DNA of 64,000 nt, from assembly GCA_038046385.1 (NCBI GenBank), contig JBBSWH010000001.1, forward strand, positions 1 through 64,000, in the 5' to 3' direction. The stretch is from Nanobdellota archaeon. Lineage in GTDB: Archaea; Nanobdellota; Nanobdellia; Woesearchaeales; GW2011-AR4. Made by a program: the position numbers and the translations under genes. Shown one piece after another: positions 43,524 through 60,216 of the stretch. The first letter of the stretch is position 1. Each line of letters starts with the position of its first letter. The notes under the pieces are model-generated. The model was not told where the DNA came from, made no database searches, and saw only the letters and a list, made by a program, of their open reading frames with translations.

Positions 43524-43576
43524 AAGTTTGATTATGGCGGTATTTATAGATTGCTAAAAAATAAATAGTAGATTCA

Positions 43577-44224
43577 CTATTTATGCCTTTTTTTCTTAAA
43601 CTTTATTGTATGTATGTTCCATTGCTTTGAATGACTTTTAATTAATTTGAATTCTTCAAGAAGCGGTCTAATCCTATCCTGCCTACTTTTTAAAAAAGAC
43701 TCAATTTTATCGTCGAATTCTTCATCATTATTAGTATTCCATCCAAACTTATATGAAAAATGATGCTTTCTTGCATAATAATTTAGCCTATTAAATGTTT
43801 CAAATTTAAAATATAACAAAGTTCTACCGTCTTTTAATGTTATCTCTCTAAATTTTTGAGTTGCTAAATCCTTAATTCGTTTCATCCCAATTTTGTTATT
43901 TTCTGGAATATATAAAACTAAAAATGAATTTTCTGGATAATATTTAAAATAGTTAAGCAAAAGCTCTTTGTCTATAATGAACTCTCTATCTCTTGAAATT
44001 ATCAACGATTTTATTTCCACGTAAAAAGTTTGTTCATTAAAGGAATCATACAATTTTAAATCTGGAGAATAAATATCTCTTGCAGAGATGTTTTCAATAA
44101 AGTGTTTCCTATGTTCAACTCCAACAAAATTCACTTCAAAACCCATGTCCTTAAAAAGTTCACAAACTATTTTTTCACCCTCCTTTCCATATTTATATTC
44201 AATTGAATCAGGTATCTCAGTCAT
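43577..44224 (-). CDS. PD-(D/E)xK nuclease-like protein
   Basis: GKEGE..V, SPDL, YVEIKS; start at MTEIPD. Confidence 0.7.
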   Translation of the reverse strand: MTEIPDSIEYKYGKEGEKIVCELFKDMGFEVNFVGVEHRKHFIENISARDIYSPDLKLYDSFNEQTFYVEIKSLIISRDREFIIDKELLLNYFKYYPENSFLVLYIPENNKIGMKRIKDLATQKFREITLKDGRTLLYFKFETFNRLNYYARKHHFSYKFGWNTNNDEEFDDKIESFLKSRQDRIRPLLEEFKLIKSHSKQWNIHTIKFKKKRHK

Positions 44225-44285
44225 ATTGATAATTAAACTAATTGACTTTTTTAATCTTTTTAATATAGCTAGAAAATAATAAAAA

Positions 44286-44404
44286 AGCCTCTGATGGGAA
44301 TTGCACCCACGACCTTTGCCTTTTAGGCTAGCATATGGTACCAAGGCTTCGCGGATTAAAAGAATACTTCCAATCTAACGCAATGGCTACTATGCTACAG
44401 AGGC
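44286..44404 (-). tRNA. tRNA-Thr(GGT) with two introns (44348-44376 at 28/29; 44322-44338 at 37/38)
   Basis: GCCTCTG/CAGAGGC acceptor stem; removing both BHB-like introns restores TTGCC-TTGGTAA-GGCAA. Confidence 0.8.
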
Positions 44405-44468
44405 ATATTAATACAGAAAATTGCCCCATATTTAAATTTAATCAATAAAACAAAAAATAAAAAACCCC

Positions 44469-44786
44469 CTACTTCTTCACAACCTTTTCTTCCTTAAGCA
44501 CTTTCTTTGCTATCCAGAAAACCACAAGCGCGATTATCACAAAATTCAGCAATGCAGCGACAAATGCGCCCCACTTCAGAACTACCGGGCCTAAGTTTAG
44601 AGTTGCTTCCTGCCATGCTCCTCCGGGTATGAACGGGGTTATCAGCGGCATTATTATATTATCAACAAGCGATTTGACCAATGCAGTTATGGCTACGCCC
44701 ATTATGAATGCGACAGCCAATCCCATCACCTTATACTCTTGCAAAAATTCCTGAAATTCTTTTATCATCTGCATAAAACCACCCAT
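44469..44786 (-). CDS. mscL: Large-conductance mechanosensitive channel
   Basis: EFQEFL, LAVAFIMG, SLVDNIIMPL, WGAF...LNFVII. Confidence 0.9.
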   Translation of the reverse strand: MGGFMQMIKEFQEFLQEYKVMGLAVAFIMGVAITALVKSLVDNIIMPLITPFIPGGAWQEATLNLGPVVLKWGAFVAALLNFVIIALVVFWIAKKVLKEEKVVKK

Positions 44787-44864
44787 TTATTAGATTAAAT
44801 CCAATTAATTTAAATCTTTTTATTGGCAAATATTATATACTTGCATCCCAAATAAAAAAAATAA

Positions 44865-46658
44865 ATGGTATTTTCAGTTCAGATAGGCTTAATTATATTG
44901 TTCTCTTTGGTAGGGAGCCTTCTCGCGTCAAGGTTCAGGCAGCCGACTGTTATAGGGCTGCTTATAGCAGGGGCAATCGTCGGGCCGCATGCCCTTGGGA
45001 TTGTGAACGATCCCGAAATTGTCGAAAGCGCAATAGAGCTCGGGGCAATCCTGCTGCTGTTCACCATAGGAATAGAATTCAGCATAAAAAACATATTGAA
45101 TCTGGGGGCGAGGGCTGTTTTGATAGGGGCAATAAAAATAAGCATCGTGCTTCTCCTTTCTTATTATGCTGCGCTTTTTATGGGAGCGAGCGGCCTAGAG
45201 GCGATTTTTTTCGGAATAATCCTTTCAATAACGAGCACAGTCATAGTAATAAAAGTAATGGAGCAGAAAGGGCTTGCAAAAAAAGAGGAGCTTCCGCTTT
45301 TGATAACAATCCTCATCCTCGAGGACATTTTCGGTGTTTTTGCACTTGCATTTATTTCCGGGCTCAATACGCATGCAGACCTGAATCCGATAGGAATACT
45401 TACGAAACTTGCAGTATCCCTTGCCCTGCTGGTATTCACTTATCTTATTTTACAGAGATTAGCGGGGCGCGCTTTCAACTGGATTGCAAAATACAGCTCC
45501 GAAGACACTGCAACATTTACTTCACTGAGCCTTTGCGGAATAATGGCATATGTTGCAACGCTTCTTAGCCTGTCGCCTTCTGTGGGGGCTTTCCTTGCCG
45601 GCAACATAATAGCATCTTTTCCAAATTCAAAATCATTCGAGAAAGCAATACACCCTTTTCTTTTGACATTCACTTCCCTTTTCTTTTTTTCAGTAGGCAC
45701 AGCGGTGAACTTTGCTTCAATAATCTTTGAATTTAGGCTCATACTTGTGCTGTTTGCGGTAAGCGTAATTGTGAAATTCATCACCATAGGGGCCGGCAGC
45801 TACATCTTCACAAATTTCAACGGAAAGCAGGCGGCTTTTAGCGGAATTGCAATGATATCCATCGGGGAATTTTCGCTGCTGATAGCAAAAGAGGCTAATG
45901 CTGTGGGAAGCAGCATGGATTTTGTCAGCATAACTGCCTCGATAATACTTCTTTCGACAATAACCATGTCTCTGATGATAAGCAATACCGGCAGCGTATA
46001 CAGGCTGACAACACGGCTCATTCCAAAAAAGATGAGGGAGAACATGGATATAACTTCAAAATACATAAACAGCATATCTTGGGCGATGGTAAGGGACAGG
46101 GTCAACCTTGGAAAAATAAAATCCGAGTTCTATAAGATACTGAACAACATGACCTTCGTTTTCGTGTTCATAGCCCTGGTGCTTTTTTTATGGAGATACT
46201 TCCATGTTGCAATCAGCAGCCTGCTCAGGAATGACTATGCCACATATTTCACTGTTATTGCCATTGTAGCCATACTCTACATACCGGTATCAAGAATAAT
46301 AAAAAATGCAGCCCATTTAAACAAGGACCTCTTCCGGTTTTTTGTAAAGATATCCCCAAAGGAGCTTCAGTTTGATACAAAAATTTTCAGGAAGATAAGG
46401 ATACTCTCCCTTTTGTTCATAGCCATGATAGTGTTTCCCCAGGTATTCCTTTTTTTCAGGATACCTGTCATCTACAATGCGCTGGTGGTATTAATCTTCT
46501 TAATAATAACATTCAATGCCCTGATGGCATCCAATATGATACACGATGTAGTGCACAAGCACGAGAAGGATTTTGGAAAATCCGACAAGGGATATGTTGC
46601 CATACTGAAGAAAAAGATGAAGAAAGTCGAGAAGGAAAGGATATTCGAAGAGAATTAA
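44865..46658 (+). CDS. CPA2 (KefB-like) cation:proton antiporter
   Basis: G.IVGP, ELGAILLLF.IG.EFS, LILED, GAFLAG, IGEFS. Confidence 0.88.
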   Translation: MVFSVQIGLIILFSLVGSLLASRFRQPTVIGLLIAGAIVGPHALGIVNDPEIVESAIELGAILLLFTIGIEFSIKNILNLGARAVLIGAIKISIVLLLSYYAALFMGASGLEAIFFGIILSITSTVIVIKVMEQKGLAKKEELPLLITILILEDIFGVFALAFISGLNTHADLNPIGILTKLAVSLALLVFTYLILQRLAGRAFNWIAKYSSEDTATFTSLSLCGIMAYVATLLSLSPSVGAFLAGNIIASFPNSKSFEKAIHPFLLTFTSLFFFSVGTAVNFASIIFEFRLILVLFAVSVIVKFITIGAGSYIFTNFNGKQAAFSGIAMISIGEFSLLIAKEANAVGSSMDFVSITASIILLSTITMSLMISNTGSVYRLTTRLIPKKMRENMDITSKYINSISWAMVRDRVNLGKIKSEFYKILNNMTFVFVFIALVLFLWRYFHVAISSLLRNDYATYFTVIAIVAILYIPVSRIIKNAAHLNKDLFRFFVKISPKELQFDTKIFRKIRILSLLFIAMIVFPQVFLFFRIPVIYNALVVLIFLIITFNALMASNMIHDVVHKHEKDFGKSDKGYVAILKKKMKKVEKERIFEEN

Positions 46659-46701
46659 GGATTTTTCTGGTGGAATATAAATGCGGGGAACTGATGCGCC
46701 C

Positions 46702-46737
46702 CAACCTTTTCTTATATAAGAAAAGCTTGACCAAAAG
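46702..46737 (+). repeat. Family C hairpin element
   Basis: caacctttt..aaaagcttgaccaaaag; same motif as 13452-13486 and the tRNA-Ala intron. Confidence 0.75.
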
Positions 46738-46874
46738 AAGTATGCTACGCAGTTGTGAGGTAAACCTCACTAAAGAAAATATAATGCGGGGGAAGCACAT
46801 TCCGCCCCTATTAGAATGCGTATCTTAAATTCCCTTTCTTATTTATATATCTTTTCATGTTACGTAGGGTGCTT

Positions 46875-47348
46875 TTAGTATTTTTTGAGTATAGAGAGAA
46901 TTTCTTCAACTTTTCTACTCCTCTCTAAAGAATCATTTTTTTGCTCTGGCAATAGATTTTGAAATATAACAATCATAGAATTAGAAAGAATAAGCATATT
47001 GGAAAGGATAGTCTCCATTTCTTCAATGGTAGGGATATTTTTACGCATTAAGAAGAACCTCTTTTTATGTAAGTATTTGTACTCTATATTCAGATGTGCC
47101 CAAATTTTTCTTAAGTTTTTTTGTATATCTATAACTTCTTTAAAAAATTCATTAGATATAACTTCTTTGATAAACATGTTTGTAAGTATACTTTTCCTAA
47201 ACATTAGCTCTGTCTGTAACTTATTCAAACTTTCTTTAAATTTATAATATGGCTTAATCATAAACTGGTTAAGAAGCTCTCCAGTTATGTATACTACCAC
47301 TCCCCCTATAATTGTTAGTGAAGCCGTTAAAAATTCTGATTCATACAT
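46875..47348 (-). CDS. Hypothetical protein with N-terminal TM (element cargo)
   Basis: 157-aa AT-rich ORF. Confidence 0.6.
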   Translation of the reverse strand: MYESEFLTASLTIIGGVVVYITGELLNQFMIKPYYKFKESLNKLQTELMFRKSILTNMFIKEVISNEFFKEVIDIQKNLRKIWAHLNIEYKYLHKKRFFLMRKNIPTIEEMETILSNMLILSNSMIVIFQNLLPEQKNDSLERSRKVEEILSILKKY

Positions 47349-47413
47349 ATCTTAAAAAGTTACTAAGATTTATTAATAAGCTTTCCTCTAATTAGTGTCT
47401 TCTTAAGAATTAA

Positions 47414-48322
47414 TTATAGTTTTTTGTGTTCAAGTTGCCTGATACGATTTAAAATTTTTCCAACCTCTCGTGGCCGCATGAAAGCCATAAACAGTATAAA
47501 TGGAATTATAATAAAAGTTGCCCACACAACTATGACATAAATCCAAGTATAAATAACTTCGAATATATTGTTAAATTTATCAACACTCTCAATAGTTACC
47601 GACATAACCAACCAGGTCATAATAAAAAATATGTTTGCTATGGTTATTTTATTTAAGAATCTCGAAACTCTTATTTTATGGTTCAAGTACTTAATATTGT
47701 TCCCCATATGCAAGAAGAGGTAAGCTCCCAAATAAAAGATAACTGATAAGCTAAATTTGAAACTAACTTTATCTGCTGAGTCTGCACCCCCATTTACTCT
47801 GAAAAATAGATTAATAACAGTTCCTAAAAATATGGCTAATGTAGTTAGAAATTCTAATTTAGACTTTAAATCCTTGACATCAACAGAGGCAACAACTCTT
47901 AGTACTTGAGTTTGTTGGACAGTGGTTTCTGGTTTTTCTTTTACAAAAAAAGCAACTACACTCAATAATAATCCCATCAAAATGAACAAAAGCTCCAATT
48001 GTCTGTAGTATTTTACTTTTTCATTCAGATAAATATATTTATTAGTCAAAGGACCCATATTTTCTGCCAGATTTCTCGCTTTTAGGGCATAATTTGAGCT
48101 ATTGATTAAGAATTTTGTATCGCTTTTATTCATGTAATAGATTAGAAAATTAAGGTCAGATTCCGAACTCCAAGAATTAACAGCATCACGAACGTAATCT
48201 CTTGTAGTAACAAATTCTTCTGATGTGCTTTGATAGAAATCTCCAATGAAATGAAAAAATATCGATAAAGTAACAGCTATGGTAGAAAGTATAATTAAAT
48301 TATTTTTTGTTAAGCTAACCAT
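47414..48322 (-). CDS. Hypothetical multi-TM membrane protein (element cargo)
   Basis: About 6 hydrophobic segments; GAGGTG SD-like motif upstream. Confidence 0.65.
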   Translation of the reverse strand: MVSLTKNNLIILSTIAVTLSIFFHFIGDFYQSTSEEFVTTRDYVRDAVNSWSSESDLNFLIYYMNKSDTKFLINSSNYALKARNLAENMGPLTNKYIYLNEKVKYYRQLELLFILMGLLLSVVAFFVKEKPETTVQQTQVLRVVASVDVKDLKSKLEFLTTLAIFLGTVINLFFRVNGGADSADKVSFKFSLSVIFYLGAYLFLHMGNNIKYLNHKIRVSRFLNKITIANIFFIMTWLVMSVTIESVDKFNNIFEVIYTWIYVIVVWATFIIIPFILFMAFMRPREVGKILNRIRQLEHKKL

Positions 48323-48458
48323 GATTTAACCACCTCACCACCCCTTAACTGTAGTAAATAAGGCTTGTTTTATTAATTTATCCAAAAAATATATAAGAAA
48401 ATAAGCACTGGACACCTATACGCAAAGTTTAAATACTTTTAAAATTAGGGTAGTATCA

Positions 48459-48530
48459 GGGTATTTCGGTATACGAAATATCCAATTCAGTCTAAGTGGT
48501 GCGGTTTACGTAATCACTTAGACTTTTTTT
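48459..48530 (+). ncRNA. Candidate two-hairpin small RNA convergent with the DUF3800 gene
   Basis: TATA-like TTTAAATA at 48428, hairpins 48459-48483 and 48489-48524, terminal T7 run. Confidence 0.4.
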
Positions 48531-49326
48531 AAAATCTGGGTTCTGGGAAAACTTTTACTTTAACTGATCCATCTATTACTACGCTTCCTATTTCTAAAGT
48601 GCATATTGGCTTTAATATTTTTAAGTACCCTTCATTATAGCACTGTTTTTTTAAATTTGAACATAGGAAGCAGTAATAGGATCTTTGAAAAGCATAGCAA
48701 ATTAAATCAGCAATTTCATAAAATGATGACTTGGACATCGGTTCAATATTTAAATCTGCTAATATATTTGAAAAATCTTTTACATATGTGGTTCCATTCT
48801 TCATTACATCTCGATGCACCCTTTTAATATTAGACGCTAATTTAGTTGAGCTATCACATAAATTTACAATCCCTAAAGAGTTTTTATTATCTCCTCTTCC
48901 CTTAATTATTTTTTGAAATTTCTCTAATACGAACTCGTAAGCTAAAAGATAAGGGTTTGCAGGATGTTTGTATTTTTTCCTTAGGTTATGATTATCAATA
49001 ACTATAATTATTGGTTCAATAGGCATCTTTGCAATGAACTCATACAGTTTCAACATTATTTCTTTGCCTTGTTGATCGGTTAGATACCCCTTATACCTAT
49101 TTCTGTTGTTCCTGGAGATATGATTTAACTCTACAGCATGGGCTGGAGTAGTTTTAAGCTCTTTAGGGAATAGTGACTCTTTAAATTCTTTGAAAATCCT
49201 ACTTTGATTAAAATAATCTTCTTCTTTTATAATTAAACCACCTAAAACAAAGAAATCAGATTGCTCTCTTATGTTAGGGTTATCAATACGTGAACTTCCC
49301 GATTCATCTAAGTATAAGAGATACAT
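48529..49326 (-). CDS. DUF3800 family protein (RNase H-like fold)
   Basis: YLLYLDESG, FVLGGLII, HAVEL, IADLICY. Confidence 0.8.
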   Translation of the reverse strand: MYLLYLDESGSSRIDNPNIREQSDFFVLGGLIIKEEDYFNQSRIFKEFKESLFPKELKTTPAHAVELNHISRNNRNRYKGYLTDQQGKEIMLKLYEFIAKMPIEPIIIVIDNHNLRKKYKHPANPYLLAYEFVLEKFQKIIKGRGDNKNSLGIVNLCDSSTKLASNIKRVHRDVMKNGTTYVKDFSNILADLNIEPMSKSSFYEIADLICYAFQRSYYCFLCSNLKKQCYNEGYLKILKPICTLEIGSVVIDGSVKVKVFPEPRF

Positions 49327-49591
49327 TATATAGGAAATTTTTTTGGTATTTATAAAGAATACTGTGTTACGCCCCTTTAATGAAGAGGTATATGCACGCT
49401 TATATTTAAAATATTTTATTTTTTAGGTTTAAATATAATAAAAATTAGGAAAAAGTTTTGGTTATAGGATAACGCCTCGGTTAAATATATTTGAAGGCCA
49501 ACCATCCTCCGATTGCAAAAGCTATCAGGCCATAAGCAATAAGTCGAAGTATAAACCTTTTATCCATTCTTTTTGGGCTGTCGAGTTAGTA

Positions 49592-49990
49592 TTATCTATT
49601 AATTGAAAAAAAACTCTCACCTTTTTTATAATTTTTTACCCTTGTAAACTTTTTTGAGTTTGGATAAATTTTAGTAAATTGACAATCATCTATATTATCT
49701 CCCTTAAATGATATAGTTATCTCATCATAACTGCTCGGATATGTCTTAATTGCAAACTTATGAGCTGTTTCAAGATTATCTAATGCTATATGAAAAAGCC
49801 ACTCAATAACAGCTTTTCCCCCCCATTTTTCTTTGATATAATCTTCGTAATCTTTAGTATAGGAATGTCGTTCTATTCTATGATTGTATTTTAGCCATTT
49901 TCGAGGTTCATCTATCCATTGATGAAGTTCTTGAAAAGTCTGTCCAGTTCTACACTCACTTACTTCCATATGAAATTTTAGAGACGGCAT
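49592..49990 (-). CDS. Hypothetical His-rich, possibly metal-binding protein
   Basis: H, LHQWID, HRIERH, HIALD. Confidence 0.65.
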   Translation of the reverse strand: MPSLKFHMEVSECRTGQTFQELHQWIDEPRKWLKYNHRIERHSYTKDYEDYIKEKWGGKAVIEWLFHIALDNLETAHKFAIKTYPSSYDEITISFKGDNIDDCQFTKIYPNSKKFTRVKNYKKGESFFSINR

Positions 49991-50137
49991 CTTTAATCCT
50001 CCTAAACATTTAATTTTTTGGGCTGAAAAAGTAAAAATGAAGGGATAGTTTTTCGTTAGAATAACTTACCTTACCTTTTCCAGCTTTCCAACATAAAACC
50101 ATTATAAAACATATTATAAAAGCTTTGCGACATAAAA

Positions 50138-50383
50138 TTAAGGATAATCAATACAAGACTCAGTATTTTCATCAGTACATCTATTAAATCGTCTACATGC
50201 TAAAAACCAGCCTTTGAAGAACCCATATTTCTTAAGTGCCAATATTGCATGATTTGAGCATGAAGGATAAAACCTACAAATTATGTTTCTTTTTTTATTA
50301 AAATTTCTACCAATTTTCCCGTGCCATACTTTCTTTATAAAAAATATTGATATTAAAATCAAGAGATTATTTTTTCTTCTCAT
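50138..50383 (-). CDS. yidD: YidD-like (membrane protein insertion efficiency factor) protein
   Basis: CRFYPSCS..A..A..KYG..KG......R..RC.......DYP. Confidence 0.8.
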   Translation of the reverse strand: MRRKNNLLILISIFFIKKVWHGKIGRNFNKKRNIICRFYPSCSNHAILALKKYGFFKGWFLACRRFNRCTDENTESCIDYP

Positions 50384-50675
50384 ATATACTCACTTCTTCA
50401 GTGTAATTCTGTGAACCACATTCTGGACATCTTCGTAAATTATCAAGTGAATCTTTAGATGCACCTACATTTCTTTGAGCTTGTAGAGCTGCACCAGAAT
50501 TACAACAACACGCATTAGACATTTGGTTTAAAGCAGCAACACCTTTAGCACTTTCAATTTCTTTTTCTCTTTCTGATAAAGAATGCCACACCTTACCACA
50601 TTCATTACATTTTCGTTTAAACTCTTTTACGTGCTTGTTCTTATCAAAATCCGCTTCCGAAATCTTTTTGCTCAT
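50367..50675 (-). CDS. Zinc-ribbon protein
   Basis: CNECGKVWH and RCPECGS. Confidence 0.7.
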   Translation of the reverse strand: MSKKISEADFDKNKHVKEFKRKCNECGKVWHSLSEREKEIESAKGVAALNQMSNACCCNSGAALQAQRNVGASKDSLDNLRRCPECGSQNYTEEVSIYEKKK

Positions 50676-50699
50676 TTTTCTAAAGATTATTTAAATATT

Positions 50700-51230
50700 T
50701 CAACACATACCATTGGTAAAACTTATCAGTTCTTTGGCATCAGCAGTGTATAGATATATATCTTTGCAAGATTTCATTAATTCTAACCTGACGACTGGGA
50801 TACCACCATCACATTCTTTTGTTTTGGATAGGCACTTATAATAGGCTTGATCTTTTGTTAAAACTTTTGGAGCTTTTGAGGTTTCATTAACCTTTTGCTG
50901 TGGCATGAAGTTAGAAATGAGAATCATAGCAGCTATAACTATAATGCCCCACAAAAAGAATTTTTTATAGTTTGGGTTTTTCTTATCTATTAAATTTGTT
51001 TTACTTACGCTAACATTTTTATTAATTTTATGTTCTCTTGACTTAAAATTCAATTTCTCTTTAAAGAACTTTCGTGATGGTGGAAGTATCACAAGTCCTA
51101 TTGCGAGTGAGGTAGTTCCAACAATAAAAGATGAATCTGAAAAATTTCCTAAAGAAGCCAAAATAAAGATAATCCCAAAAATCCAGCTAAAAACTCCTCC
51201 TAAAGTAATTTTTTTAACATCTTCTACCAT
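50700..51230 (-). CDS. Hypothetical membrane protein
   Basis: Three TM segments and a Cys-containing C-terminal domain. Confidence 0.65.
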   Translation of the reverse strand: MVEDVKKITLGGVFSWIFGIIFILASLGNFSDSSFIVGTTSLAIGLVILPPSRKFFKEKLNFKSREHKINKNVSVSKTNLIDKKNPNYKKFFLWGIIVIAAMILISNFMPQQKVNETSKAPKVLTKDQAYYKCLSKTKECDGGIPVVRLELMKSCKDIYLYTADAKELISFTNGMC

Positions 51231-51262
51231 TAACTTACCACCACACTTCTATATCCATTTTT

Positions 51263-51937
51263 CTACGTTGACCTTAAGTTAATATTAAATATATCGTTAA
51301 TCTCACTATTGGAAGCAACAACTATTTTCAAGTCTTCAAGGTTTTCTGGAATATCAAACAAAACAAAACCTCTTTTTTTAATGCCTGGGTTTATAGCATC
51401 ACCAAACCCTGAAAATAAGGTAAAACTCTCTCCATTGTAAGTTCCAGTAGCATCATTATCACTAAGAAACTCCCTTCCTTGAATATCCTCTAATTTCATT
51501 AAAGTATTATCAAACTTAGCTGCCTTTTTAGCTAAATTTTCAACTTCTACTTCTATAATTAAATAAGTGCCGTCGGCTACTTGCATGCCACTAAACATTC
51601 CACCAGAAAAAGATTTTAGTTCTTTATTGCTTAAAAATGTCCACTTAAAATCTCCGGCCACTATTTCATCTTTAAAATTGTACGTTACATTTCCAAAGAA
51701 TTTTTTCTTACAATCTATAATATTGCTTACAATAGTAGATTCATCAGGGCAGACATATTGTATTTTTTCCACAATCTCAGTTTTAATTTCAACCTTTGGT
51801 GGACAAGAATTACAATCAAGCTCTTGGCACTTTGTAGAAGGACAGGCAGTTTCTTTGCATTCTGGACACTGAGGAACTGCTTGAGTACAAGCAGTAATAA
51901 ACAACAATCCTATCAACAATAAAGCATAAACTTTCAA
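51263..51937 (-). CDS. DUF4352-like lipoprotein
   Basis: Lipobox ITAC, Cys-rich linker, YLII.V.VEN, L.D.QGREF, INPG....G..LFDIP. Confidence 0.72.
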   Translation of the reverse strand: MKVYALLLIGLLFITACTQAVPQCPECKETACPSTKCQELDCNSCPPKVEIKTEIVEKIQYVCPDESTIVSNIIDCKKKFFGNVTYNFKDEIVAGDFKWTFLSNKELKSFSGGMFSGMQVADGTYLIIEVEVENLAKKAAKFDNTLMKLEDIQGREFLSDNDATGTYNGESFTLFSGFGDAINPGIKKRGFVLFDIPENLEDLKIVVASNSEINDIFNINLRST

Positions 51938-52006
51938 ATTAAATACCCCCTAATAGATAATTTTTGAAGATGGCTTTAAATAATTTTCTATCCTCTTAAT
52001 ATTACG

Positions 52007-52044
52007 CTGATTATCACGCTTTCTTTTATTCTGATTATTACGCT
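52007..52044 (+). promoter_or_regulatory. Direct-repeat operator candidate upstream of the wHTH gene
   Basis: ctgattatcacgct (52007-52020) and ctgattattacgct (52031-52044). Confidence 0.4.
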
Positions 52045-52052
52045 ATAGATAT

Positions 52053-52307
52053 ATGGATGACGAGTTAAAAATATTCTTAGCAAGAAGCAAGCTTAGAAGT
52101 AAGATTTTACAAGAGTTAGAAGAAAAGCCTCAAATAGCTTCTTTTTTGGCAAAAAAGATTAAAAAGCATAGAGAAGTTATAAGCAGGGTATTTTTGGATT
52201 TACAGAGAAAAAAGTTAGCTGTATGCACAAATTCAAAAGATTCAAGCTTTAGGTATTACAAAATAACAGAGCAAGGCAAAAAGGCACTTAAAGAGTTAAG
52301 AGTTTGA
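52053..52307 (+). CDS. Winged-helix transcriptional regulator
   Basis: RSK.R.KIL..L, ISRVF.DL, YYKITEQGK. Confidence 0.8.
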   Translation: MDDELKIFLARSKLRSKILQELEEKPQIASFLAKKIKKHREVISRVFLDLQRKKLAVCTNSKDSSFRYYKITEQGKKALKELRV

Positions 52308-52474
52308 ATTTTCAAAATCTGACAAAAATTTCTGACAAGCGGTAGCTTTACCATATAAGAGATAAAAAATTCTACCCCCACCCCCTATATGAAGTAATAC
52401 TACTTCTATATTCTACATCCTATATAAGTCAGCACAGAAGTATTTATATAGTAGGCTTACTTTATTTATGAAAT

Positions 52475-52672
52475 ATGGAAGAACTAAAAGGAAAGAAAGT
52501 TAAGATTGTAACACTCAATTACTTCGAGACTAAGCAGAATGGGTTAATCAAAAGGCAGTACAGGGTTAGTATTGCTCCTAAGATTATAGAAAGCTTAGAA
52601 CTGAAGGCTCACGATAAGCTCAAAGTATGGGTTAACAAGGCAAAGAAGCAGATTAGAATGACAAAATTATAA
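52475..52672 (+). CDS. AbrB/MazE-like DNA-binding protein
   Basis: QYRVSIAPKIIESLEL..HDKL.V.V. Confidence 0.6.
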   Translation: MEELKGKKVKIVTLNYFETKQNGLIKRQYRVSIAPKIIESLELKAHDKLKVWVNKAKKQIRMTKL

Positions 52673-52869
52673 TCATAAGACTGCTGGCATAGACCAGCAG
52701 CTTGGAGTAAACAAAATGGCTTGCGACCAATTAGATACTCCACAGGAAGCAGTTCCTGTGGCTATTAAAAACCTTTCTGGACAAGAAAAGGTATTCAAAG
52801 ACCAAAAGGCTCAGGATAGATTTGAGTACCTTGTAAGAACAAGGAATAAGGTTTGGGCAATTGTAAAAT

Positions 52870-53160
52870 TCAAATAGAATTTTTTTTATTTTTCTTTTTA
52901 TCCGATTCTTTTGTAAAATATGTTAGTAACTGTCCCATCATTGAATTTGGACTTATTCTTAGGGCGAGGCTTTCTAATGGGTATTTTTGGGCATTTAATG
53001 AAGATTTAAACTTTCCAATGTCTGATTTTGGGCCAGAGCTTCTTTCTCTTGAAATTTGAGCAAGCAGTTCTTTCCAATTTGAAGTTCGTTCTCTCCACTT
53101 CCTTCCTTCTGCTGCTATCTCAGGATTACCCTTTGGATTATTCCACCTTTTACCTATCAT
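52870..53160 (-). CDS. Small protein with HGGxSTG-like motif
   Basis: SSGPKSDIGKFKSSLNAQKY resembles STGPxTxEGKxxSxxNAxKHG of phage/MGE proteins. Confidence 0.55.
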   Translation of the reverse strand: MIGKRWNNPKGNPEIAAEGRKWRERTSNWKELLAQISRERSSGPKSDIGKFKSSLNAQKYPLESLALRISPNSMMGQLLTYFTKESDKKKNKKNSI

Positions 53161-53438
53161 TTTTTGGTTTTGGAAGATAGTTCGTTTGGTTATTATCGAT
53201 AAGTTATGAATATAAGTATTATAATCATTCTTCCTTCTTCAATAGGGCTATTATTTTTCGGTTTAGGGCTTCAAGTTGGTTAAGTTTATACCTTACCCAA
53301 TCCTCAAAGTTTAACCCTTCTTCTTTTTCTTCCATTTTATAAATAATATAATTATTATATTATTGAGATGTATACTATGTACTACGTACTGAACGTGAGA
53401 TAGTGTCAAATAACATTGATGTTATGATAATATCCATA

Positions 53439-53843
53439 TTATTGTTCATGTAGTTTTGGTTTAACTTTATTCAATAAATATTCAAATTCTTCATCTGAAA
53501 GGTCTTTTCCAAAGTTTTCGTAAAACCCTTGTTTTTGACCTTCAAAGAATTTTCTGTCTCTCTCAATAGCCTGTAGAGCGTTCTTCAAATATGGAATCCA
53601 ATTTGAGTTAAGTTCTACTTTGATTTCTTCTATGCGACTTCTGCCTTTTAGTTTCTCTAATTCTTCACTCTCTTCTCTCAGTTCTTGCTGTCTTTTTTCT
53701 ATTTCCTTATCAGTAAACAAATTGCTATCAATCAGTTTTCTGATATATTGAGATCTGTCCTTGCCAAGAATATTCATTCTGGCTATCTGCTCTGGTGTTA
53801 GCGTTATGCTGACATTAACAAATCTTGAGTGGTATTGTTTCAT
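53439..53843 (-). CDS. Ribbon-helix-helix plus coiled-coil protein
   Basis: VSITLTPEQ, RSQYIRKLID. Confidence 0.65.
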   Translation of the reverse strand: MKQYHSRFVNVSITLTPEQIARMNILGKDRSQYIRKLIDSNLFTDKEIEKRQQELREESEELEKLKGRSRIEEIKVELNSNWIPYLKNALQAIERDRKFFEGQKQGFYENFGKDLSDEEFEYLLNKVKPKLHEQ

Positions 53844-54036
53844 TTTTCTCCAGTTTTTTACGAATAAGTGAGCTTAAGTCTATGCCGAGTTGTAAAGCCT
53901 CATGTTTTAATTGCAGTAACCTATCGGCTTCTAAACGAAAAGCTAAAAATTCTGTCTTCTTTTGGATATGATTGGATTTTTTCTCAAAGCCAGGGTGATA
54001 GTATTGTTTTTGCATAGTTATCACTACGTTATACAT
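53815..54036 (-). CDS. Ribbon-helix-helix protein
   Basis: LAFRL, LKHEA.QLGIDLSSLIR; start may be ~54015. Confidence 0.6.
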   Translation of the reverse strand: MYNVVITMQKQYYHPGFEKKSNHIQKKTEFLAFRLEADRLLQLKHEALQLGIDLSSLIRKKLEKNETIPLKIC

Positions 54037-54161
54037 ACCTTTTTATTTCAGAATTAGCTACCCTTTATTGCTTAGGTTTGGAAGCTAATTCCTTACTTAA
54101 TTCTTGCTCTGCCTCCTCTGTCAAGGAGGCTATTCTTTTAATTATATTATTATAAACTAAG

Positions 54162-54302
54162 TTAGGATTTTTCATTTTCTTTTACTGCCATTTGAATTAG
54201 TTGAAAAACAAGGTTGCTAACTGACCTACCATCTTTTTTTGCTTTATTTTTTATCTTTTCAGCAAGTTCATCTGAAATAATAGTTTGGAGTTTTTTACTC
54301 AT
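54162..54302 (-). CDS. Small Arc/CopG-like ribbon-helix-helix protein (46 aa)
   Basis: Manually translated MSKKLQTIISDELAEKIKNKAKKDGRSVSNLVFQLI. Confidence 0.7.
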   Translation of the reverse strand: MSKKLQTIISDELAEKIKNKAKKDGRSVSNLVFQLIQMAVKENEKS

Positions 54303-54388
54303 GCTAATCGAAATGAGTATAGTGGATTAATATATAAAGAGTGATTCAATGGCAAGTTATTTGTAACACTTCGCACAAGTGCTATATT

Positions 54389-54784
54389 TTTCTAACCGGT
54401 TAGAAACCGGTTTCCACTTTTTGAAAAGTATGGGAAAGATGGAACGCGAAATCGATTTCGCAAATTGAAGCAATATGGCAAAAACTCAAATGCCAACCGG
54501 TTGGCGAACCTAAAACAATATGGTAGGGTGGGACCTGAGCATTTGACAAACCGGTTTGTCAAATTGCAACCGGTTGCAAAATTTGAAGAAATATGGGGAT
54601 GGGACTGAAAATCGATTTTCAAGATTGAAACAATACGGAATTAGGTTGCTTATAATATCTCTTTTGGTGCCGATTTTCTGGAAATCGATTTCCACTTCCA
54701 AAAATTGTTTTCGCTTTTGTCGAATCGATTCGACAAAACCAAGTAAAAATGTCAAACCGGTTTGCCATTTTGTCAAATCGATTT
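54389..54784. repeat. Array of 11 AAYCGRTT-centred palindromes, five followed by N16-TAYGG
   Basis: Cores at 54394, 54405, 54450, 54495, 54549, 54568, 54610, 54683, 54723, 54755 and 54776. Confidence 0.85.
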
Positions 54785-54809
54785 TACATTTACTAAATAT
54801 CTAAATAAA

Positions 54810-56084
54810 CTAATTCTTTAATTCCTTAATCTCCTTCTGTAGTTCTGAAACTATCTTAAACAACTTTTGTACCTCTGGGATCTGCATAAAATTATCATAT
54901 TTTTGCATTTGATCTTGTATCTTTGTTCTATCTAAGGGCCTCTTGCAGTTGTTGCACGTTTCAGAAGTAAACCCATTTTTTACATTACAGAATAAGCAGT
55001 CTTTGATTTTTGGCTGCAATTCCTTATATTTTTCATCCTGAACTAATCCTCTTTTTACCAGCTCAATCTTAAAGGATTCATCATGCTGGCTTAAATCATA
55101 AGTTTTGAGCTGTTTGTTAGACGTCCATCTTGCAGCGTGCTGTATTTCTAAATCACTATCCCCTCTTAATCTCCGGAAAGTTACTCCATTTCGCTTTAGG
55201 GAATAAGCAGTCACGGGCTTTTCTATTCCAAGATATTTACAGGCTGTATGTATCTTGTTGTTGATGTTTTTAGGCTTAAATTGTTGCCCAAATTCTCTGT
55301 CACTCAAATTGACGAATAGAAAGGCATCTTTATTCTTCTTAAGCGGATGTTGCTCTAACCATTTTATAAGATAAGGATAGCTATCTATACATTGCAAAAA
55401 TCCTGTTCCTTCTTTTCCATGCTCAGAAATCCATATCTTAGCATAGTTATCATAAAGCTCGACATCTTTTACTTTTGTGTAAAGAATTTCTTGTGGTCTT
55501 CCTAAACTTTCCAATGACAAAGTTAGATAAAACTGCATCCTTGGATCATTAGAAAAGAAACTAACTACTTTTTCAAACTCTTCAAACGTAACCTTATCAC
55601 CCCTCCTTTTTTCTTTGCTTTTGTCAATTTTAGGGCTTAAATGCCTAACGGGATATGGCACAAGTGTATCGTCAATTCTTTCTCTTTCATCCTTTTCAGG
55701 AAAAAGCACCTTCCACATATGCTTTAGGTCTCTTATGAAATCAGATTTGCTCTTTGGAGACTTATAGGAAGTATGCATAAAAGATACAATGCTGTTGACA
55801 TCCTCTCTTTCCAAATCCTTTAAGTCCTTGTCAGTTGAATTGCAAATAAGCCTCATACTCATAAGAAGCCGATTTCGCCTAACATAGCTAAGATCTTTAG
55901 CTTCAAAAACTTTGAATAGCTGCTCGAAATAGACTAAATTATCCTTATTCTTGCAGTAGTACTTACCTCTCTTAGTTACTTCCTGCCTTTCTTCAGGCTT
56001 TACAACAAATTGATCCAGGTTTTTCTTAAATCTCCCGTAAATCCTTTCATTATGGTATATATCGTCTTCTGCCATGGCTATCAT
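54810..56084 (-). CDS. Tyrosine integrase with C-terminal zinc ribbon
   Basis: GRPQE (R), HGK, YSLKRNGVT, HAARW...TY; CLFC and CNNC; adjacent to the tRNA att site. Confidence 0.85.
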   Translation of the reverse strand: MIAMAEDDIYHNERIYGRFKKNLDQFVVKPEERQEVTKRGKYYCKNKDNLVYFEQLFKVFEAKDLSYVRRNRLLMSMRLICNSTDKDLKDLEREDVNSIVSFMHTSYKSPKSKSDFIRDLKHMWKVLFPEKDERERIDDTLVPYPVRHLSPKIDKSKEKRRGDKVTFEEFEKVVSFFSNDPRMQFYLTLSLESLGRPQEILYTKVKDVELYDNYAKIWISEHGKEGTGFLQCIDSYPYLIKWLEQHPLKKNKDAFLFVNLSDREFGQQFKPKNINNKIHTACKYLGIEKPVTAYSLKRNGVTFRRLRGDSDLEIQHAARWTSNKQLKTYDLSQHDESFKIELVKRGLVQDEKYKELQPKIKDCLFCNVKNGFTSETCNNCKRPLDRTKIQDQMQKYDNFMQIPEVQKLFKIVSELQKEIKELKN

Positions 56085-56141
56085 TCTCCTGCTTCCGACT
56101 TATATACTCTTGTTAAACAACGCATTCATTTAGAAAATAGG

Positions 56142-56259
56142 TGCGGGGGAAGGGATTCGAACCCCCGAATCCACTAAGGAACAGGATAGCTTATCTCGCT
56201 TACAGCGCGAGTGTTCCATCTTAAGTCCTGCGCGTTTGGCCAGGCTTCGCTACCCCCGC
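56142..56259 (-). tRNA. tRNA-Leu(TAA) with canonical 32-nt intron (56188-56219)
   Basis: GCGGGGG/CCCCCGC acceptor stem, long variable arm, CAGGA-CTTAAGA-TCCTG, BHB helix CTTA/TAAG. Confidence 0.92.
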
Positions 56260-56301
56260 ATAAAACCAATGATTCAAAGACCTTATTTAAATGTTTTCAG
56301 A

Positions 56302-56414
56302 ATTATTGAAAATTTTGTGAGTTAATACCTCCTATCTTAGTACGAAATTTTCAATCTCGCAGACTTGCCTATTAATTACGAGGCGCAATTGCTCCGAGTG
56401 GCAAGTCTGCGTTA
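56302..56414 (-). repeat. Family B double-hairpin element
   Basis: Matches 7335-7435; begins at the TAA stop of 56412-56933. Confidence 0.75.
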
Positions 56415-60068: not shown

Positions 60069-60216
60069 CCCCGCGTAGCTTAACGGCGGAGCGCTCGGCT
60101 GTGAGACTTTAAAGTCTGGCTAGAGATGCGCTCTAAGACCTTACGCTATTCTAGCGAGGAATGATAGAGAGCCAGTCGTGCCCGGGAGGTTGCTGGTTCA
60201 ACTCCGGCCGCGGGGA
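60069..60216 (+). tRNA. Intron-containing tRNA, probably tRNA-Tyr(GTA) with a split anticodon (unspliced reads GTG/His)
   Basis: CCCCGCG/CGCGGGG-A acceptor stem (C1:G72, A73), T-arm GCTGG-TTCAACT-CCGGC, 76 extra nt in the anticodon loop. Confidence 0.75.

Follow-up and report, generated by a model that had tools for sequence, protein, structure and literature searches.

An orphan array of eleven palindromes with covarying arms beside ribbon-helix-helix genes in a Nanobdellota archaeon

What kind of element is made of eleven short palindromes that share a fixed core and yet differ in their arms, each pair of which remains complementary? The question is raised by positions 54389-54784 of a 64,000-nucleotide (nt) stretch of DNA from a Nanobdellota archaeon (order Woesearchaeales; GenBank assembly GCA_038046385.1, contig JBBSWH010000001.1, forward strand), hereafter the window, in which the palindromes lie between a gene for a tyrosine recombinase/integrase and an operon encoding proteins of the ribbon-helix-helix (RHH) type. 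A preliminary description had proposed folded recombination sites, an RNA array co-transcribed with the integrase, or an origin or centromere bound by the RHH proteins. The array is real, statistically robust and odd, and it is a single orphan locus. We tentatively read it as a multi-site operator or nucleation region for dimers of the adjacent RHH proteins, a role that is possible rather than probable, and the category that suits it best is the RHH-type operator array, of which it would be an unusual variant whose palindrome arms evolve in concert.

The motif AAYCGRTT, the centre of every palindrome, occurs 14 times in the window, with 11 occurrences inside 54394-54783; shuffled windows held 4.9 on average and 11 at most, and 14 was reached in none of 100. 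Across the analysed genome (1,283,103 bases, or 1.28 Mb, in 19 contigs; the window itself is AT-rich, with ~38% G+C) there are 70 such sites, 46 of them palindromic (AACCGGTT or AATCGATT), and 11 of these 46 belong to the array (six AACCGGTT and five AATCGATT). Mixed cores (AACCGATT or AATCGGTT) account for 24 of the 70 sites genome-wide but for none of the 11 in the array. Past the core, perfect complementary arms extend by 5, 2, 4, 3, 8, 4, 4, 4, 8, 2 and 1 nt in units U1 to U11 (mean 4.1 nt), against a mean of 0.46 nt at the 35 palindromic cores elsewhere in the same genome. Perfect palindromes of at least 12 nt number 469 genome-wide, and the 10 in the array form the only such cluster in the genome. 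The shared core and distinct perfect arms described earlier were recovered in all 11 palindromes, with the four quoted arms present as written. The only other cluster of cores (three sites on contig C2) was rejected as a second array, being ordinary coding-looking sequence without arms. Avoidance of a restriction-modification target was also considered and set aside: AACCGGTT and AATCGATT each occur 23 times in the genome against rough composition estimates of ~15 and ~41, respectively, which is nothing striking. The boxes are as follows.

54389-54784, no strand: whole array, 11 dyad-symmetric boxes nnnnAAYCGRTTnnnn in 396 bp
54389-54406, no strand: U1, TTTCTAACCGGTTAGAAA, an 18-nt perfect palindrome overlapping U2 by 4 nt
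54403-54414, no strand: U2, GAAACCGGTTTC, 12 nt, followed by a box 2 with TATGG at 54429-54433
54446-54461, no strand: U3, GCGAAATCGATTTCGC, 16 nt, with box 2 TTGAAGCAATATGG at 54465-54478
54492-54505, no strand: U4, GCCAACCGGTTGGC, 14 nt, with box 2 CTAAAACAATATGG at 54510-54523
54541-54564, no strand: U5, ATTTGACAAACCGGTTTGTCAAAT, 24 nt, without box 2
54564-54579, no strand: U6, TTGCAACCGGTTGCAA, 16 nt, with box 2 TTGAAGAAATATGG at 54583-54596
54606-54621, no strand: U7, TGAAAATCGATTTTCA, 16 nt, with box 2 TTGAAACAATACGG at 54625-54638
54679-54694, no strand: U8, TGGAAATCGATTTCCA, 16 nt, sharing the 3' flank TCCACTT with U2 but differing from it in core type
54715-54738, no strand: U9, TTTTGTCGAATCGATTCGACAAAA, 24 nt
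54746-54771, no strand: U10, AAAATGTCAAACCGGTTTGCCATTTT, 12 nt perfect at 54753-54764 and 26 nt when one mismatch is allowed; the first of two 21-nt tandem duplicates
54775-54784, no strand: U11, AAATCGATTT, 10 nt perfect, or TGTCAAATCGATTTTACA when one mismatch is allowed; the second of the two 21-nt duplicates, differing from U10 in core type

Centre-to-centre spacings along the array are 11, 45, 45, 54, 19, 42, 73, 40, 32 and 21 nt; the 42-45-nt spacing claimed earlier therefore holds in the left half only and breaks down in the right (full range 11-73 nt). TAYGG stands exactly 16 nt past the core in five units (cores at 54405, 54450, 54495, 54568 and 54610), four of which match YTRAARMAATAYGG, as had been described, and the reported distance to the integrase gene is also correct, since the last palindrome ends at 54784 and the stop codon occupies 54810-54812, leaving 25 nt between them. 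The units are 56% identical on average, with direct-repeat families 60-88% alike, and the sole repeat called by Tandem Repeats Finder (TRF) is the 21-nt one, in two copies.

Covariation was assessed on 10 units aligned on the core, with pairs counted for a 12-pair dyad. Columns A16, A17, C19, G20, T22 and T23 are invariant across these units. Paired cells made up 79.2% of the total, while shuffles gave 61.6% and none of 500 came as high, and the covariation score was 0.513 against 0.194 in shuffles (again 0 of 500 as high), falling to 0.07-0.15 when partners were slid by 1-3 columns. The four arm positions flanking the core are paired in 10, 9, 8 and 10 of the 10 units, with three to five double changes each, and pairs farther out occur only here and there; this makes nnnnAAYCGRTTnnnn, a 16-bp dyad, the standard box. 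Within the core, Y and R change jointly, giving CG in five units and UA in the other five. Units that share flanks differ in core type by just this coordinated double change (U2 and U8, with TCCACTT; U3 and U5, with CAAATTG; the duplicates U10 and U11), implying that the switch happened repeatedly. The inner eight pairs comprise 80 cells, of which Watson-Crick pairs fill 76 and a U-G pair a single one (1 of 77 paired cells), although only four cells are informative; the absence of a G-U bias fits DNA over RNA. The preliminary description took arm diversity with preserved pairing to imply selection on a hairpin or cruciform. What the scores bear out is a constraint, or a templating process, acting on intrastrand pairing, of which selection is just one of two possible sources. 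The other is template switching during replication, to which parts of the literature ascribe the formation and upkeep of perfect hairpin stems as well as the homogenisation and growth of inverted-repeat arms (PMC8794818, PMC8604942, PMC13100816).

Chance and assembly artefact can be dismissed, being ruled out by the shuffles, the genome-wide counts, the arm lengths and independent contigs. The sequencing runs that contain the stretch are groundwater metagenomes, and the 14 listed include no RNA data set. Contigs from run X4, which belongs to another study, show 0 differences over 53699-54629 and 54601-54828, and a contig from run X11 is identical over 54304-54479; in runs X3 and X7 contigs were missing over most of the array. 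Given the identity of the X4 and X11 contigs, the sequence of the array, including the 19-nt step from U5 to U6, is not a one-off product of assembly.

The array fills the 507-bp gap between the integrase gene and a three-gene RHH operon on the minus strand that begins 86 nt from U1. The operon and its upstream region hold the following features.

54162-54302, minus strand: p46, an RHH protein, encoded by the first gene downstream of the array (PF07878 RHH_5, 34.1 bits against a cut-off of 26; Arc-like repressor PHROGs)
53815-54036, minus strand: p73, a weak CopG-antitoxin-like RHH candidate (PF12441, 20.3 bits, under the cut-off of 28)
53439-53843, minus strand: p134, without a Pfam match, with an N-terminal RHH-like pattern recognised by eye and then long predicted helices; its gene overlaps that of p73 by 29 nt
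54327-54339, minus strand: putative TATA-box-like element TTAATATATAAAG, ~25-37 nt upstream of the p46 ATG

In a single-sequence AlphaFold2 model of p134 the predicted local distance difference test score is 52.7, so that only the helices are suggestive. Reading from the sequence, the array begins ~50 nt upstream of the TATA-like element.

How might such an array work? We suggest that it is a non-coding intergenic region built by tandem duplication, at first of ~45-nt units and later in steps of 11-21 nt, and that its invariant 8-bp palindromic core is the putative site of a dimeric DNA-binding protein, the likeliest binder being one of the three RHH proteins encoded 86 nt away. Eleven sites over 390 bp, lying upstream of the RHH promoter, would then provide an operator of high capacity or a platform for nucleation, from which dimers or tetramers could oligomerise or loop the DNA, setting the expression of the RHH operon and perhaps blocking read-through from the integrase gene. 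Protein recognition, however, explains neither the mirror-image arms nor the all-or-none switch of the core, and for this reason the arm symmetry and the coordinated changes from C/G to T/A are attributed to intrastrand pairing. Either hairpin or cruciform extrusion would be selected for, or, as we prefer, template switching during replication of quasi-palindromes would copy one arm from the other, so that apparently compensatory changes arise in a single step.

Several observations favour an RHH operator. The core is fixed, all 11 copies being AACCGGTT or AATCGATT, and the nearest downstream gene encodes an RHH_5 protein above the Pfam cut-off, followed by two RHH-like genes. RHH dimers contact DNA through a two-stranded ribbon that enters the major groove at a short symmetric site, and among the classical systems (MetJ met boxes, Arc/Mnt, CopG and omega) the met box of MetJ is 8 bp long; the array resembles these in its short symmetric 8-bp unit, its many copies and its position beside an RHH gene. 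Moreover, parts of a review of archaeal virus regulators (PMC5569661) describe the archaeal virus proteins SvtR, AvtR and F55 as binding imperfect inverted or tandem repeats, RHH dimers as binding multiple operator sites cooperatively, and high-affinity sites as able to lie ~80 nt from the promoter with oligomerisation towards it, so that both cooperative multi-site binding and distal high-affinity sites have a precedent among archaeal virus regulators (PMC5569661). The array differs from known RHH operator arrays, which have similar flanks or contiguous regular units, in that its sites are spaced 11-73 nt apart, the 4 bp on each side of the core vary yet stay complementary, and the core takes just two forms, both of them symmetric.

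Other observations weigh against this reading. The irregular spacing of the boxes is one, and their helical phasing is a weak point, being suggestive at best (best period 10.3 bp, R 0.70, P 0.088). Recognition by a protein alone is insufficient for the core, because a homodimer that tolerates C or T in a half-site should also accept mixed cores and yet none of the 11 is mixed. At the RHH promoter the sole core-like element is a half-site, AATCG at 54306-54310, which follows the TATA-like element and precedes the p46 start codon by 4-8 nt, and neither a full nor a one-mismatch box was found there or at any other promoter of the surrounding island; one-mismatch sites number four in 46.7-56.2 kb, with none in 52-56 kb outside the array. 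The RHH proteins also have no usable homologues for a test of protein-site co-occurrence: in 400 genomes of the order, p46 gave four matches at E ~1e-3 to 7e-3, none beside an array, and p134 gave two weak matches, both with stop codons. Finally, third-base variation in the five best units hints at a coding past.

The array and the operon lie inside inserted DNA. The homologous tRNA gene of five congeneric genomes is 0.7-1.8 kb from homologues of window positions 42.1-43.5 kb, compared with 12.6 kb in the window, placing the array within a tRNA-adjacent, strain-specific insertion of at most 12.6 kb (window 43550-56141), and G+C dips to 0.30-0.34 over 46-56 kb. Three features outline the element.

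54810-56084, minus strand: tyrosine recombinase/integrase of 424 amino acids (PF00589, 30.3 bits against a cut-off of 27.1; phrog_1 integrase, E 2.8e-13)
56142-56259, minus strand: intron-containing tRNA with a long variable arm (Rfam RF00005, 43 bits; missed by ARAGORN)
46785-46795, plus strand: 11-nt direct repeat of the tRNA 3' end, with its second copy at 56142-56152 (E 0.59, possibly chance)

The integrase matches only the generic PF00589 model in Pfam, and it reached 29.6 bits against a cut-off of 220 with the NCBIfam XerA/integron-integrase model. The tRNA gene, whose 3' end is 57 nt upstream of the integrase start, is the presumed integration target, and a weak candidate for the far end of the low-GC element is the repeat at 46785-46795. 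A 20-nt perfect palindrome, CTTTTCTTATATAAGAAAAG, was also noted at 46706-46725, ~60 nt from this candidate far attachment repeat. The tRNA genes at 44 kb and 56 kb were considered as attachment-site duplicates and ruled out, their sequences being unrelated. The three tRNA genes of the window (56142-56259, 44286-44404 and 60069-60216) are 118-148 nt long and are all detected by Rfam and none by ARAGORN, with introns of 35-42 nt seen in the alignments of two.

Besides the integrase and RHH genes, the island contains open reading frames (ORFs) for winged helix-turn-helix, DUF4352, YidD-like, DUF3800 and membrane proteins. The DUF3800 (E 4e-15) and YidD-like (E 7e-14) proteins are encoded at 48529-49326 and 50138-50383, respectively, and the YidD-like gene overlaps the start of a zinc-ribbon ORF. 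The 43550-56141 insertion also holds a second tRNA gene, an MscL-like ORF and a 597-amino-acid antiporter-like ORF (names read from the ORFs). Just past the tRNA gene, at 56285-56414, lies a dispersed repeat of ~90-130 nt with an 11-nt inverted repeat (GCAGACTTGCC...GGCAAGTCTGC); other contigs of the genome bear at least eight more copies (75-93% identity), with matches in several genomes of the same genus, and it could be an element resembling a miniature inverted-repeat transposable element or a small RNA.

The preliminary description tied the array to the integrase. With a threshold of E 1e-10, 74 of the 401 genomes of the order (the analysed genome included) gave a match to the integrase, and the 14 best full-length loci of 30 fetched, truncated or distant ones being left out, were examined over 590-1500 nt downstream of each gene. 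At 41-58% identity, these homologues belong to other families of the order. None of the 14 has an AAYCGRTT, a palindrome cluster or a recurrent 8-mer downstream, and perfect palindromes of at least 12 nt number at most one per locus. The array is therefore not a property of the integrase family, and the proposed link fails by a condition that the preliminary description had itself laid down, the lack of any array in related elements, with the caveat that only the integrase is common to these loci and not the cargo: all that they otherwise share is a 23%-identity match (E 8.5e-4) to the DUF4352 protein and a spurious ORF opposite the integrase gene. Unrelated genes directly follow the homologous integrases; half of the loci (7 of 14) have a convergent one in first place, which encodes 150-455 amino acids and starts 18-286 nt past the integrase stop.

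Searches for the array itself were equally empty, none of the collections searched yielding a relative of the array, of the peptide read from it or of the cargo genes. Three AAYCGRTT motifs within set gaps occur in none of 60 relatives (36 of the same genus and 24 of the same order). DNA pattern scans gave at least 120 matches in genome contigs, with none of the matches listed having three or more boxes, seven in metagenome contigs, none alike, and 100 and 52 in viral contigs, mostly plain tandem or coding repeats without arms and again none alike. Relatives of p134 and of the integrase were absent from the viral contigs, blastn of 54303-54809 against phage and plasmid collections returned nothing, and Rfam gave no family for the array at E up to 1. 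For the linkers, which the preliminary description had suggested comparing by BLAST with host and viral sequences, host matches were at chance level (13-18 nt), and phages and plasmids gave none.

Among the viral contigs, two bear small intergenic clusters with the same core (three copies of tgcAACCGGTTgca in L046 and four of caAACCGGTTtg in L038), and a phage locus (L326:1403-1518) carries, next to an integrase gene, four 18-nt palindromes with core AATCGATT that alternate between tgtgcAATCGATTgcaca and tgtccAATCGATTggaca in two copies of a 74-nt unit. Its two arm versions (tgtgc/gcaca and tgtcc/ggaca) differ by one compensated change, and its outline TGT-N2-core-N2-ACA is shared by U9 and, at the cost of one mismatch apiece, by U10 and U11. 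The phage differs in being of a bacterial temperate type (348-amino-acid integrase, XRE-type repressor region), with the sites upstream of the integrase, between it and the repressor; it has no protein in common with the window, and the likeness is possibly due to chance, the core being the search key. All three clusters look like operators, in keeping with an operator role for the array. Two other kinds of cluster with these cores were seen. Five metagenome contigs (L259-L263, e.g. L262:13000-13300; ~52-56% G+C) contain long cggAACCGGTT arrays with an 11-nt period, in groups of two to four split by ccagtccttttttggttatgg and with all three plus-strand frames open, which represent an unrelated kind of AACCGGTT array. 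A baculovirus-like viral contig (L299:2950-3375, with a VP91 N-terminal domain match) has clusters of four and six AATCGATT boxes flanking five to six ATATACTAC-like repeats, inside or overlapping an 848-amino-acid VP91-like ORF.

Which other explanations could account for the array? The one that survives best, although somewhat unlikely, is that the boxes act as hairpins of single-stranded DNA or RNA, each with a stem of at least six pairs and a conserved AA-YCGR-UU tip read by a protein, comparable to CsrB-type sponge RNAs or to hairpin-loop nick sites. A fixed tip on stems that covary freely is what one classically expects of a folded site, the minimal stem has a uniform make-up (four variable pairs plus AA/TT), the minus-strand RNA of 54380-54810 gives a better fold than its shuffled versions (z -3.79, equalled by none of 100), and with the integrase stop 25 nt away the array could be co-transcribed with that gene. 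However, the symmetry runs across the centre of the box: loop positions 1 and 4 covary (C..G or U..A, in five units each), for which a 4-nt loop has no need. The lack of G-U enrichment and of an Rfam family likewise argues against hairpins, as does the Pfam scan of 20 ORFs (18 in the island and 2 beyond the tRNA), in which no HUH/Rep endonuclease, RNA-binding or RNase domain was found, and there are no relatives in which conservation could be judged. A more specific form, in which the boxes would be folded-DNA (hairpin or cruciform) docking or cleavage sites, each a fixed tip of 8 nt on a free stem (at least 6 bp) and read by a dimeric protein of the island or by the tyrosine recombinase, would make the array an archaeal, cassette-less counterpart of shape-recognised sites such as attC; this we consider very unlikely. 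If a structural role were true, the boxes would represent a new class of shape-defined site.

Alternatively, the array could be a decayed plus-strand gene, convergent with the integrase, for a protein of 14-18-residue units (NR[FL]xxLKQYG), in which case the palindromes would be a by-product of template switching without present function. We regard this as unlikely, and the array is at most the relic of a gene, probably not a live one. The reading as NRxxxLKQYG noted earlier is present, with its synonymous-looking variation, frameshift and lack of a clear start: the plus strand reads NRFPLFEKYG, NRFRKLKQYG and NRLANLKQYG and, after U6 (19 nt after U5) has shifted the NRF frame by +1, NRLQNLKKYG and NRFSRLKQYG. 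In the five best units, invariant columns fall at 0 of 14 third, 5 of 14 first and 8 of 14 second codon positions (paired columns not being independent), LKQYG is spelled in three ways that differ only synonymously, the GGN codon uses all four bases, and the linkers read as hydrophilic loops. The convergent genes beside half of the integrase homologues also fit a former gene at this place.

Against this, no start codon precedes the first unit, every frame contains stop codons, and the 11 boxes are scattered over three frames (U2-U5 and U9; U1, U6 and U7; U8, U10 and U11). All 11 arginine codons are CGG or CGA, which make up 3.8% of the arginine codons in 460 long host ORFs, and the open frames are of ordinary length (P 0.14 on the plus strand, 0.13 on the minus strand and 0.023 for both jointly). 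A HMMER search of 1.84 billion representative proteins gave one match (E 3.4e-4) that pairwise BLAST showed to be low-complexity noise, and neither word-indexed searches of both strands, which covered proteins of near or greater length, nor Pfam and PHROGs at E up to 10 gave homologues. The recognition score from a protein language model (1108) is typical of non-proteins, with 91 of 100 real families reaching 2300. Moreover, wobble positions coincide on the two strands, so that the minus strand yields an equally "conserved" PYCFxLxNRF, and the lack of mixed cores (0 of 11) goes beyond what coding explains.

A slighter chance still attaches to a replication origin or a centromere-like partition site bound by an RHH adaptor such as ParR, ParG or omega. 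Type Ib and type II partition loci typically pair short-repeat arrays with RHH genes, p46 weakly matches PHROGs labelled "partition protein ATPase" (E 1.5e-3 and 2.8e-3), and the weak 10.3-bp phasing of the boxes points the same way. Palindrome arrays with a conserved central restriction site also serve as origins and enhancers in the baculovirus homologous regions (hr), tandem units each with a palindrome centred on a restriction-type hexamer and bound by a dimeric viral regulator. The likeness to hr implies no homology; the hr units and palindromes are longer (~70 and ~30 bp), the palindromes are imperfect, and several copies are dispersed over each genome of these insect viruses. The scanned ORFs encode no Rep, helicase, primase or ParA/ParM ATPase according to Pfam, and the NCBIfam and PADLOC scans of nine ORFs each gave no replication or partition genes, although the scanned element is possibly incomplete. 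In addition, the element is chromosomally integrated, and its repeats are neither regular nor alike, TRF finding only the two-copy 21-nt repeat. The array thus fails as a set of plasmid iterons or a parC-type centromere, both on regular, like-sequence repeats and on a Rep or partition NTPase.

Least probable of all are recombination sites for the adjacent tyrosine recombinase, as a cassette-less attC-like array or as shufflon-like symmetric crossover sites: the recombinase adjoins the array, 6 of the 11 cores contain AAC...GTT and crossover at the box centre would keep the NRF reading in frame, but the homologous integrases lack an array, crossover between differing arms would leave hybrid, non-palindromic boxes where 10 boxes are perfect over at least 12 nt, and contigs from four runs in four studies, which hide rare forms, show no joints, insertions or deletions. 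attC sites are imperfect palindromes of 57-141 nt that have extrahelical bases and R''/L''-L'/R' boxes and alternate with promoterless gene cassettes; the array resembles them in lying beside a tyrosine recombinase and in having sites defined by pairing rather than sequence, whereas its boxes are perfect over 10-24 nt, without bulges or cassettes, and only 11-73 nt apart. Nor is it a CRISPR (clustered regularly interspaced short palindromic repeats) array, which needs near-identical direct repeats of 23-50 nt and unique spacers of similar length, where the direct-repeat families here are 60-88% alike and only a 21-nt pair is called by TRF; on repeats, spacing and box form, the preliminary description was right to set aside both CRISPR and attC. 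The RNA of type III toxin-antitoxin systems (ToxI-like) consists of near-identical ~36-nt tandem repeats directly upstream of an endoribonuclease toxin gene, and the array also fails this comparison, having units 56% identical, RHH genes downstream and no PADLOC match.

An RHH operator with arms shaped by intrastrand pairing is the reading to which we return. Template-switch correction of quasi-palindromes, in the parts of the literature on which we draw, accounts for perfect stems, for compensatory changes made in one step and for arm growth around a palindromic seed; it is a mutational process and not a function, and these parts do not describe it on 11 neighbouring sites with a shared protected core (PMC8794818, PMC8604942, PMC13100816). 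With a single locus and no relatives in the collections searched, there is nothing to generalise yet. If our reading is true, the array would be an operator with a fixed, protein-contacted core whose flanks evolve as perfect mirror images, and would offer a system in which to ask whether regulatory palindromes persist by selection for extrusion or by template-switch correction. It would also give insight into multi-site control by the RHH regulators of mobile elements in DPANN-type archaea, which are almost unstudied.

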